A DNA stretch of 64,000 bases from Thermoanaerobaculia bacterium. Its GTDB lineage: Bacteria; Acidobacteriota; Thermoanaerobaculia; Gp7-AA8. Shown one piece after another: positions 1,931-4,229 of this stretch (position 1 is the first letter of the stretch; each line of letters begins with the position of its first letter). Position numbers and translations under genes: made by a program. The stretch spans positions 25,389-89,388 of the forward strand of contig DASSMK010000346.1 in assembly GCA_035688915.1 (NCBI GenBank), in the 5' to 3' direction. The notes beneath the pieces were generated by a model. The model ran no database searches, was not told the DNA's origin, and was given only the letters and a program-made list of their open reading frames with translations.

Positions 1931-2620
1931 ATGCCGAAACGCATGAGATCCACCGCCGTCCCCAACAGCAAGGCTCCTACGGGTGTCACAGATCGCACGC
2001 TGATCCGCGAGCTCTTCATCGAGCGGATGCCGTTCTACTCCTTCGACGACACGCGTCGGCTCACGCGATCCACACCAGCGGCAATCGATGCAGCGATCGC
2101 CACTGGAGAGATCGCGCCCGAGACGTACCGCCAGCACGTCGTGCTCCCGTGGGATGACGTCGCGCGGCTCGCGCTCGACCGGTGGACGCCGAGGATGATT
2201 GATGGCGCGCTTGGCTCCACCGATCGGCTCGCCGCGATCCCCCTCCTCAACCGCGTCCAGCAGCTGGCGGTGTTCCTCCCGGTCTACCAAGTCCGGCTCC
2301 TGCACTACCTCGCGGAAACGAACCGCGGGCAGTTCCGTGCGCGCTTGAACGCGAGCGACGTGCTTGAACAACACCTCCTCGATCTGGCGAGCGCCGTGGA
2401 CGCCGATGAGCTTGAGCTAGCAATTCCAGGCTTCCAAGCGGCGTGTCACTACCCCACGTTCGTCCCGCGCGCTGACGACTGGGGTACCGCCTTCTGCTGG
2501 TACTGCGGACGCGTGAGTGACGTCCCGGGCCAACAGATCTGCACGGATTGCCACGCGCGTCACGAGCCCCGGCCACACCTCGGTGAAGACGGCATCCCAG
2601 AACTGGACGAGGAGGAGTGA
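1931..2620 (+). CDS. hypothetical protein with a C-terminal CxxC...CxxC zinc-ribbon-like motif
   Basis: ORF 1868..2620 with the start moved to MPKRMRSTAV, which has a GGAG-like site upstream. The C-terminus reads CWYCGRVSDVPGQQICTDCHARH. The overlapping minus-strand ORF 1688..2374 is Arg/Glu-rich and looks like a shadow ORF. Confidence 0.5.
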   Translation: MPKRMRSTAVPNSKAPTGVTDRTLIRELFIERMPFYSFDDTRRLTRSTPAAIDAAIATGEIAPETYRQHVVLPWDDVARLALDRWTPRMIDGALGSTDRLAAIPLLNRVQQLAVFLPVYQVRLLHYLAETNRGQFRARLNASDVLEQHLLDLASAVDADELELAIPGFQAACHYPTFVPRADDWGTAFCWYCGRVSDVPGQQICTDCHARHEPRPHLGEDGIPELDEEE

Positions 2621-2687
2621 TACAGGTGATGCAGACGAACGAGCGAATCTTTTTTTGCGTCTGTAAGACACTGAAAGGAGTCATGCC

Positions 2688-2879
2688 GTGCACGACGGAA
2701 TGACGCGACGTGGCGTTCTCCTACAGCTCCTGACAATTTCGGGGACGCGCTTTACGAACGTCGCCTCTACGCCTGTGTTGCCGCCACCTTTCGCGACATG
2801 GTCCGAGATACCGGCAGCACAATCCGTCAGTCGCCGCGCTGTGTGCGCCGTGTTTCGCAAAGGTGGTCGCCGTGGCTGA
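2688..2879 (+). CDS. small hypothetical protein (63 aa)
   Basis: AAAGGAG lies about 7 nt upstream of the GTG at 2688. The ORF overlaps the next gene by 17 nt. Coding status is uncertain. Confidence 0.3.
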   Translation: MHDGMTRRGVLLQLLTISGTRFTNVASTPVLPPPFATWSEIPAAQSVSRRAVCAVFRKGGRRG

Positions 2880-3597
2880 GCAGGTGGTGTACGAGCGCAT
2901 CGGCTCACCGCGGAAGCTTCGCCGCCGGACGCAACGTACTACCTGGCACTGTCGAATTCACCACGTGCCAGAAGAACGGTTCCACCGCGCCGACGCCATC
3001 CACGTGGCGGCGCACGCGGTGGTCGCGTCGGACTTCGATATCCCCATCCGGCGCGCCATCTTCGATGGACGGCACCGGGTCTTCGAGGCGGAGTGGGCAT
3101 CGCTCGCATATGCGCGGGACAACGCGAGCCGTGAGGCGCGGATCGCGCTCGAGCACGACTGCATCACCGTTCAGTGCGGCGTCGTCGGTCGAGCGCTCGC
3201 GCTCGGGTGGTCGCACAAGGTGTGGGGCTGGGACGACGGATCGCTCGCGCACGACCTCATGGAGCGTATGGTCTACGACAGCTACGTGCGGTCAGCATGG
3301 GACGCGTACCAGCGTGAGCGCGCACGGGTGCTCCTCAACGATCCGCGGACGTGGACGCGCGTAGAACTCCTCGCGCAACAGCTGCGCGTCGTGCGGTCGA
3401 TGGACGGTACCGCGGTCGCTGGGTTCCTCGCAGAGCTCACCACCGACGCGACCGTGGTGCCCTCTGGCGCGTCTTGGCGCACACCCCCGACTCCGGGTGT
3501 CGAGCCGAACGCCGTCCTCGTGTGGCGCCGGCCGACGCTCACCGAGGCGCTGAAGGGCATGAACGGCTACGAAGCGGCGCAGCAGGAGGACTGGTGA
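2863..3597 (+). CDS. hypothetical protein; degenerate paralog of the downstream HEAGH peptidase-like protein (HVAAHAVVA in place of HEAGHAVAA)
   Basis: ORF 2863..3597. Its stop overlaps the next start in TGATGA. The segment ADAIHVAAHAVVASDFDIPIRRAIF aligns by eye with VLVHEAGHAVAAWELGVRIGAVRV of the next gene. Confidence 0.55.
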   Translation: MVAVAEQVVYERIGSPRKLRRRTQRTTWHCRIHHVPEERFHRADAIHVAAHAVVASDFDIPIRRAIFDGRHRVFEAEWASLAYARDNASREARIALEHDCITVQCGVVGRALALGWSHKVWGWDDGSLAHDLMERMVYDSYVRSAWDAYQRERARVLLNDPRTWTRVELLAQQLRVVRSMDGTAVAGFLAELTTDATVVPSGASWRTPPTPGVEPNAVLVWRRPTLTEALKGMNGYEAAQQEDW

Positions 3598-4229
3598 TGA
3601 CGATCGCGCGTCTGCAACGGGGTGTGACGCTTACGGACGTCCTGGTGCACGAGGCCGGGCACGCGGTTGCGGCCTGGGAACTCGGCGTGCGCATCGGCGC
3701 GGTGCGCGTGCACGTGCGCGTATGCGAAGGCAGGATGACATTCGCGAGCGACGTGGGGCTCGGCCGTTTCCCGGTGGGCTCAGATGCGCTGCGGCTCGCA
3801 ATCGAGCGGGAGATGGTCGTGTTCCACGCGGGCCTCGTCGCGCAGCGGCGGTTTCACTACGAGGGCGCGTGGGGGCTCGTGCCACGCACGGACTATGAAG
3901 GCATCCTCGCAGTGGCATCGCAGATCGAGACCGACCAACGCCTCATCGACGAGTGGTCGGACTACGCGGAGGAGCAGGCGCGCGCGCTGATCGAGCTCCC
4001 GCAGACCTGGCGGCGAATCGAGGCGCTCGCGGTCGAACTCGCGCGGCAACCGGTGCTCCATGGTAGCGAGATCGACGCGTTCCTCTCCGGTATCCGCGTG
4101 CCGAAAGTCGGGAACGCTCGGCGCAGGTACCGGCGACGCGAGGCGAAGGAGCTGTTCTGCCTCACGCACGATCCTGAGGATCGGGAGCCACTGGAGCGCG
4201 CGATCGCGTCCGTGCGGGGGACGCGATGA
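3597..4229 (+). CDS. putative zinc metallopeptidase-like protein (HExxH; FtsH/M41-like HEAGHA motif) with no ATPase domain
   Basis: The start was reassigned to the ATG at 3597, which overlaps the upstream stop; the ORF-track N-terminal extension 3351-3596 overlaps the upstream gene. The motif is LTDVLVHEAGHAVAAW. Confidence 0.55.
   Translation: MTIARLQRGVTLTDVLVHEAGHAVAAWELGVRIGAVRVHVRVCEGRMTFASDVGLGRFPVGSDALRLAIEREMVVFHAGLVAQRRFHYEGAWGLVPRTDYEGILAVASQIETDQRLIDEWSDYAEEQARALIELPQTWRRIEALAVELARQPVLHGSEIDAFLSGIRVPKVGNARRRYRRREAKELFCLTHDPEDREPLERAIASVRGTR

Follow-up and report, generated by a model that had tools for sequence, protein, structure and literature searches.

A predicted motor-less FtsH-type protease domain and its non-catalytic paralogue, translationally coupled in an integrase-proximal operon of Acidobacteriota

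Organization of the locus

We analysed a 64,000-nucleotide (nt) stretch, hereafter the window, of a metagenome-assembled genome (MAG) of Thermoanaerobaculia (Acidobacteriota). The subject is a gene module spanning positions 860-5600, at the centre of which two adjacent open reading frames (ORFs), ORF B and ORF C, encode a non-catalytic and a catalytic-looking member of one predicted protease family. The module, which reads mainly on the plus strand, and the sequence adjoining it contain the following features (lengths in amino acids, aa).

659-634, minus strand: terminator-like hairpin after int1
892-1494, minus strand: int1, a short (200 aa) tyrosine recombinase (Pfam Phage_integrase, PF00589, 3.7e-28)
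1931-2620, plus strand: ORF A, 229 aa, which opens the plus-strand operon
2688-2879, plus strand: remnant of an XRE-like gene, 63 aa, identified by DNA alignment and by blastp among relatives
2863/2872-3597, plus strand: ORF B, a non-catalytic M41 paralogue (HVAAH), starting at either 2863 or 2872
3597-4229, plus strand: ORF C, a predicted standalone M41 (FtsH-type) protease domain, 210 aa
4226-4456, plus strand: 76-aa ORF, a frameshifted copy of a Cys/His-rich gene (-2, +1 and +1 nt)
4462-4824, plus strand: gene for a 120-aa protein with a C-terminal LHERYFGxP motif, the last conserved gene of the module
4851-4866, plus strand: weak terminator-like hairpin 3' of the 120-aa gene
4939-5586, minus strand: int2, a second short tyrosine recombinase (PF00589, 3.3e-29)

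An initial annotation, made from the sequence letters, had described ORF B and ORF C as coupled through a TGATGA overlap. This was confirmed at 3595-3600, where the ORF B stop codon (TGA, 3595-3597) and the ORF C start codon (ATG, 3597-3599) have one base in common, and a Shine-Dalgarno sequence (AGGAGGA) sits 7 nt 5' of this overlap. The ORF C stop overlaps the start of the 76-aa ORF (ATGA, 4226-4229), and the stop of the 63-aa ORF overlaps the ORF B start. Given these codon overlaps, the plus-strand genes therefore form one translationally coupled chain.

ORF C is predicted to be a motor-less FtsH-type protease domain

FtsH is commonly viewed as an ATP-driven membrane machine. ORF C has a 100% identical counterpart among the NCBI proteins of a Thermoanaerobaculia MAG. 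Residues 17-24 of ORF C read V-H-E-A-G-H-A-V and give the motif H18-E19-A-G-H22. Among 23 C-family sequences, H18, E19, H22 and D99 were invariant; in a wider family of 79 members, H18 and H22 remained invariant and E19 was conserved in at least 90%. Searches of Pfam, NCBIfam, PHROGs and PADLOC gave no significant match for ORF A, ORF B or ORF C, neither ORF C nor ORF B matched PF01434 at E <= 1, and phmmer and a narrow C-family profile run against PDB sequences returned chance matches only. The link to FtsH emerged solely from a structure model and from a profile of the 79-member family.

The AF2 model of ORF C (pLDDT 82.5, pTM 0.83) had FtsH/FtsHi rings as its closest structures, and the structural alignment covered the FtsH protease domain alone. 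The 79-member profile matched FtsH chains in the PDB at 2.3e-14 with HEAGH aligned on HEAGH, and the same profile-to-PDB alignment paired D99 with the Asp in the 'AENDF' stretch of T. thermophilus FtsH, an Asp that we take to be the third zinc ligand. D99 lies 77 residues past the second motif His, and the M41 ligand Asp is expected about 71-77 residues after the motif. The Pfam Peptidase_M41 model (PF01434) was matched by 58 of the 79 family members (E <= 0.01; best, 1.7e-14). An exhaustive search of 1.84 billion proteins with the C-family profile retrieved 1568 cluster representatives (50% identity) at E <= 0.001, mostly 160-200 aa long and carrying 'TAYHEAGHAV'. ORF C is assigned to M41 because of its fold, its motif, its ligand spacing and this transitive sequence evidence, and the model indicates that its fold is that of the ring-forming protease domain of FtsH. 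The motif had initially been called FtsH-like, with its conservation among homologues named as the point to check; the modelled M41 fold and the invariance of HExxH among C-family homologues bear this out.

ORF C resembles FtsH and other M41 peptidases in having HEAGH in the first helix and the Asp at the spacing given above. Unlike them, it is 210 aa long, has no AAA+ ATPase (no AAA domain was found by Pfam or NCBIfam) and no transmembrane segments, with HExxH beginning as early as residue 18, and it is encoded by a mobile-element gene beside an integrase. Between the two stretches that match, FtsH has some 40 residues that are missing from the branch, and the ORF C tail is basic at the C-terminus, where relatives have a domain resembling the RNA polymerase alpha C-terminal domain (alpha-CTD). 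ORF C is thus a bare M41 protease domain and not FtsH proper, as it has neither an AAA+ module nor a membrane anchor.

Databases hold other standalone 'Peptidase M41 domain-containing' proteins, such as A0A6J5RJ76 (uncultured Caudovirales phage) and PDB 5iqj (Vibrio cholerae), which are uncharacterised. These are single genes with no dead paralogue upstream in the contexts sampled, whereas the B-C pair forms a sub-branch. No description of standalone M41 domains, or of a paired dead paralogue, in mobile elements or defence was found in the literature searched.

ORF B is a non-catalytic paralogue maintained together with ORF C

At the corresponding position, residues 46-53 of ORF B read I-H-V-A-A-H-A-V. 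BLASTP aligned ORF B with ORF C at E = 9e-8 (26% identity over 157 aa) with HVAAH on HEAGH, which upholds the initial view of an intact and a degenerate paralogue, and a profile derived solely from C-family members retrieved the B-family protein P0053 at 2.2e-12 from the 1.84 billion proteins. These results indicate that ORF B and ORF C are true paralogues beyond chance and, by homology, that ORF B has the same fold as ORF C. Five B lineages read HVAAH, RVAAQ, SIAAL, HLAGH and HHAGH; the catalytic Glu is present in none of them, and the His ligands are likewise not conserved across the B family. The Asp is invariant in the B and C families alike, and the B family has conserved N- and C-terminal extensions of its own. 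Some relatives fused to an alpha-CTD-like domain are also without the Glu (P0068, HAAGH).

The ratio of nonsynonymous to synonymous substitution rates (dN/dS) was estimated against 11 related loci, and was 0.12-0.21 for ORF B and 0.10-0.18 for ORF C at dS 0.37-0.95. Against L009, the locus that shares a deletion with the window (see below), both genes gave about 0.14 at dS of about 0.37-0.40. These values indicate that ORF B is not decaying and is under purifying selection. A B-type gene followed by a C-type gene, with an overlap of 1 or 4 nt, was found at all 17 loci with enough upstream sequence (13 close loci and the distant L006, L008, L025 and L023); in L023, an XRE-like gene sits between the B-like gene and C. 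The comparison across loci indicates that the B-C pair is old and maintained, a pseudoenzyme/enzyme couple. We regard the fold and the pseudoenzyme parts of the interpretation developed below as near certain.

The pair is part of a conserved cassette

Thirteen MAG loci from Thermoanaerobaculia/Acidobacteriota carry the same cassette, which consists of an integrase gene on the minus strand followed by A, an XRE-like gene, B, C, a Cys-rich gene of about 75 aa and a gene of about 120 aa. Some cassettes add a 76-100-aa gene between the last two, and one MAG bears two copies of the cassette. A metagenome scan added at least two close loci and at least three remote ones. It is the upstream integrase that accompanies the cassette throughout. 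The initial annotation had placed these genes as cargo between integrases; two recombinases do flank the cassette in the window, but the second is present in only 3 of the 13 close loci and in the distant L035.

More distant relatives keep similar company. The 120-aa protein was also found in L006 and L008. In L006, L008 and L025, an ECF-sigma-like or HTH_31 gene and a gene for a TPR protein lie upstream in divergent orientation, and L006 and L025 additionally have S24 (LexA/CI-type) peptidases. The L008 cassette sits among baseplate and tail genes, and in L004 and L015 a terminase-like gene follows a few kilobases downstream. In several relatives, the M41 domain is fused to an alpha-CTD-like helix-hairpin-helix domain; in L024, the gene next to the protease encodes an S24-alphaCTD fusion. 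In L035, an integrase (72% identical to int1), a zinc-ribbon A-like protein and an intact XRE-like gene stand around one active-looking M41-alphaCTD protein, which replaces the B-C pair, and a second integrase closes the locus, as in the window. Single-copy family members adjoin a phage integrase (L030), an HTH_17 protein (L032) or a DUF4224 protein (L033). These gene neighbourhoods indicate that the cassette is the operon nearest the integrase in a family of Acidobacteriota integrating elements, prophages and island remnants among them.

Several S24 domains in the relatives were without the usual N-terminal helix-turn-helix (HTH) domain (L024, 679-1212; L023, 1607-2083; L025, 5158-5496). Those of L023 and L024 are fused to a C-terminal alpha-CTD-like domain instead, which resembles a repressor with reversed domain order. 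An example from a cultured organism was found on the Rhizobium rhizogenes K84 plasmid pAtK84b (L022, 5399-6507; Arad_14028/Arad_14027), where the gene for a standalone M41-like 'hypothetical protein' begins 8 nt after that of a MarR-family regulator; a mutagenesis-type cassette with dnaE lies nearby. The remote L029 match lies inside an 811-aa ORF that is probably a full-length FtsH. In L021, the 243-aa gene 3' of the singleton was considered as a paralogue and ruled out (hhalign probability 0.2%).

Companion genes and partial decay of the module in the window

ORF A had been noted as a zinc-ribbon protein, and its C189, C192, C204, C207 and H211 proved to be invariant in 24 homologues (CxxC...CxxC...H, C-terminal). 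The protein has a putative N-terminal winged helix of the MerR/excisionase type (about residues 20-95), a helical middle and the C-terminal zinc ribbon.

The XRE-like gene of the relatives lies directly 5' of B, its stop overlapping the B start. It encodes a protein of 128-164 aa whose N-terminus is hydrophobic and resembles a TAT signal, and which weakly matches a Cro/C1-type HTH (HTH_26, E 0.045). A TAT-like N-terminus together with a Cro/C1-like HTH is an odd pairing for a DNA-binding protein, and both Pfam matches were sub-threshold. DNA alignment with this gene revealed a 276-nt internal deletion in the window that removed the HTH part. The same deletion is present in L009, which indicates that the loss predates the split between the window and L009. 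The initial annotation had proposed a search for an adjacent HTH repressor; a putative winged-helix protein, ORF A, does adjoin the pair and an XRE-like remnant lies between A and B, but the HTH of the latter is deleted in the window.

The Cys-rich gene of the window has suffered indels of -2, +1 and +1 nt that scramble its conserved CxCGH repeats, and its ORF is nonetheless open. The intact Cys/His-rich protein of about 75 aa reads MTDAFFDNRPSFMCACGHKK...CRDCxC...CxCGHGKKAH...CKEAYKCGC and, even at remote loci of prophage-like character, is encoded 3' of the M41 pair. By sequence comparison, the copy of the module in the window appears partly decayed (XRE-like and Cys-rich genes broken), with A, B, C and the 120-aa gene intact.

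A conserved intergenic element was observed between ORF A and the XRE-like gene (2640-2680), reading TTTTTTTGG/CG...TGTAAGACAC...GAAAGGAG, with the same position in L004 and L010; this element may serve as operator or internal promoter. Around the cassette, no direct repeats resembling attachment sites were conspicuous, no tRNA genes were found in the window, there were no Rfam matches in 1-7000, and no match to a sigma-70-type promoter was obtained.

A candidate regulatory protease pair of the integrating element

We read ORF B and ORF C as an ATP-independent regulatory protease pair of the integrating element, with a probability of roughly 0.45. The fold, motifs, paralogy, coupling, synteny and selection described above are observed, an integrase and DNA-binding proteins are constant company, and fusion or adjacency to DNA-binding domains recurs among the relatives. 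Beyond these observations, we infer the proteolytic activity, the substrate, the hetero-oligomer and the physiological role. B and C would be produced in fixed proportion from their overlapping codons and would assemble as a mixed oligomer, in which C would provide the active site (H18, E19, H22 and D99) and B a non-catalytic partner surface for binding or regulation. Without an unfoldase, cutting by the complex would be limited to specific sites within a segment that is accessible in a DNA-bound element regulator, and this cleavage would switch the element from quiescence to excision or induction, or back.

The best candidate substrate in the window would be ORF A. The XRE-like protein as the only substrate was set aside: B and C are constrained in a lineage without the XRE-like gene, and since that gene is lost and B and C are still under purifying selection, the XRE-like protein cannot be the sole target.

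Such a scheme would follow the logic of ImmA/ImmR of ICEBs1 and IrrE/DdrO of Deinococcus on a different protease fold (PMC6868357, PMC12828697). In these systems, as predicted here, a zinc metalloprotease gene is co-transcribed with genes for DNA-binding regulators (PMC6868357, PMC12828697); ImmA also adjoins the integrase gene of its element, is ATP-independent and has HExxH near the N-terminus. Unlike the B-C pair, which is a predicted enzyme/pseudoenzyme couple, ImmA and IrrE have the M78 fold and belong to that family, and the partner regulators of B-C are a putative MerR/excisionase-type zinc-ribbon protein and an unusual XRE-like protein. Membership of ORF C in ImmA/IrrE (M78, COG2856) was ruled out, as neither sequence nor structure gave an M78 match. 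The relation to ImmA/IrrE that the initial annotation had raised is accordingly one of logic only, and the suggested anti-repressor role would be an analogy drawn from how the genes are arranged and would imply no shared family.

A second comparison is with the chloroplast FtsH12/FtsHi/Ycf2 complexes, which contain FtsHi pseudo-proteases (PMC8197885; PDB 8xkv). These are membrane AAA+ motors whose pseudo-proteases retain the ATPase, whereas B and C are both bare domains that would assemble only by our proposal.

Several points weigh against the regulatory-protease interpretation. ORF C falls below every Pfam threshold, its sole match being a sub-threshold M50B hit on the motif, and no substrate, cleavage site or activity is on record for any member of the branch. 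The window is without the XRE-like protein, and no S24 or alpha-CTD protein was found among its cassette ORFs. Neither tblastn of GenBank phages with four family members nor a scan of viral contigs (IMG/VR) with the C-family alignment gave a match or a close relative, respectively, and a broader alignment found three remote singletons only in IMG/VR; the evidence for a phage connection thus comes from a few contigs of metagenomes. FtsH proteolysis normally needs ATP-driven unfolding, and because of this dependence a domain without a motor may be confined to exposed loops or may not cut at all.

A wider claim would be that AAA-less FtsH domains acting as enzyme/pseudoenzyme hetero-oligomers are an unrecognised class of regulatory proteases of temperate elements, a second, independent invention of the ImmA/IrrE type. 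Targeting would then come from the dead paralogue or, in sister lineages, from the fused alpha-CTD-like domain. We consider this generalisation rather unlikely at present.

The FtsH protease domain exists also as a free module, as the 1568 representatives attest, and one branch is permanently paired with a dead copy. This dead/active pair is embedded in the integrase-proximal control region of elements in a major, poorly studied soil phylum. If an element regulator is indeed cleaved, the metalloprotease/repressor switch of ICEBs1 and Deinococcus would gain a second, structurally unrelated solution, the pair would be a bacterial, motor-free counterpart of chloroplast FtsH/FtsHi, and there would be a handle on the induction of Acidobacteriota prophages and defence-carrying islands. 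If not, a clean annotation is still obtained for a large set of 'hypothetical proteins'.

Alternative functions of the pair

The B-C pair could instead be conflict cargo (defence, anti-defence or toxin-antitoxin-like), with C damaging a target and the dead B restraining or guiding it. The cassette of the window has a STAND protein (NB-ARC/TPR) and a full set of SspABCD genes as neighbours, L006 has three MmeI-type restriction-modification genes, and L002 has a DNA methylase and an HATPase_c_3 protein. These defence neighbours vary by locus, however, whereas int, A, B and C are constant, which points to an island core and not to cargo; PADLOC was silent on A, B and C, and the pair also occurs in the early/regulatory region of a prophage (L008). 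We judge a conflict role improbable.

It is also quite improbable, in our estimate, that B and C act on host FtsH by joining or capping the protease ring of the hexamer and so altering the stability of FtsH substrates. Lambda CII/CIII control runs through FtsH, which CIII inhibits, an outcome analogous to this one, and the setting here is likewise a temperate element. The predicted fold is the ring-forming domain of FtsH, and one subunit is permanently non-catalytic, as in mixed FtsH/FtsHi rings. However, C strictly keeps its catalytic motif, for which a mere decoy would have no use; the FtsH segment of about 40 residues is absent from the branch; and the alpha-CTD fusions favour DNA or transcription factors over a membrane protease.

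That neither protein is a protease, and that the pair serves as a zinc-binding scaffold or DNA-associated adaptor with HEAGH for metal only, seems very improbable. B does show that the fold can be kept without catalysis, and the alpha-CTD-fused P0068 (HAAGH) is also without the Glu; in the C family, however, the Glu of HExxH is invariant, in the wider family it occurs in at least 90% of 79 members, and metal binding alone needs no Glu. Hardly credible is the view that the block is a dead remnant whose intact frames are functionless leftovers: two module genes are broken in the window and no phage structural genes were seen near its cassette, but the frames of B and C are intact with start/stop overlaps and a Shine-Dalgarno sequence, and their dN/dS against L009 is about 0.14 (dS about 0.37-0.40).

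Integrases bracketed by inverted repeats

The two integrases of the window, int1 and int2, are 52% identical, and both match Phage_integrase. Aligning int1 to int2 and to the integrase of L035 put its start codon at ATG 1494, and int1 gave a dN/dS of 0.07-0.25. NCBIfam subfamily scores for int1 and int2 (XerC, XerD, invertase and integron) were all far under the cut-offs, and neither recombinase is therefore placed in a subfamily. Each gene is associated with a perfect inverted repeat.

866-878 (outer arm) and 1529-1541 (inner arm): 13-nt inverted repeat of int1, TGCGGAAAAGCGT
4924-4938 and 5574-5588: 15-nt inverted repeat of int2, TTTTGATGAAAAGCG, an exact bracket

DNA homology between loci begins about 10 nt to the left of the 866-878 arm. 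Nearly all short integrases (about 200 aa) adjoining the cassette are bracketed by a perfect inverted repeat of 12-17 nt, with arms about 650 nt apart, which was also observed in L002, L004, L006, L009, L010, L012-L017, L019 and L035. One arm lies at or just 5' of the start codon and the other shortly past the stop, and between one locus and another the arms vary in concert (for example TGCGGAAAAGCGT, TGCGAGAAAACGT, AAATGTGGAAAAGCGT and TTTTGATGAAAAGCG). No such repeat was found at the second integrases of L017 and L019. Together with its repeats, the integrase gene may constitute an invertible segment of the Hin type that encodes its own tyrosine recombinase and controls how the operon is expressed; alternatively, the repeats may let the 5' end of the mRNA pair with its 3' end. 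The integrase segment had one and the same orientation in all assemblies.

Defence genes next to the cassette

An 857-aa STAND NTPase with NB-ARC and TPR domains is encoded at 6380-8953 on the minus strand, convergent with the cassette, and relatives that are 28-30% identical to it occur near the cassette in L002/L003/L018, L009 and L017. At higher coordinates, a complete SspABCD DNA-phosphorothioation defence system was detected on the minus strand at 14895-21307 (PADLOC E 1e-79 to 1e-249).

14895-15827, minus strand: SspD
15703-19233, minus strand: SspC
19122-20018, minus strand: SspB
20015-21307, minus strand: SspA

Genes for a double-HATPase protein (12528-14879) and for a 653-aa protein (10640-12601) adjoin this system and may encode its effectors. 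A 483-aa protein encoded at 23569-25020 on the minus strand gave PLD-type DrmC-like matches (PADLOC 1e-13), which suggests that there are more defence genes beyond Ssp.

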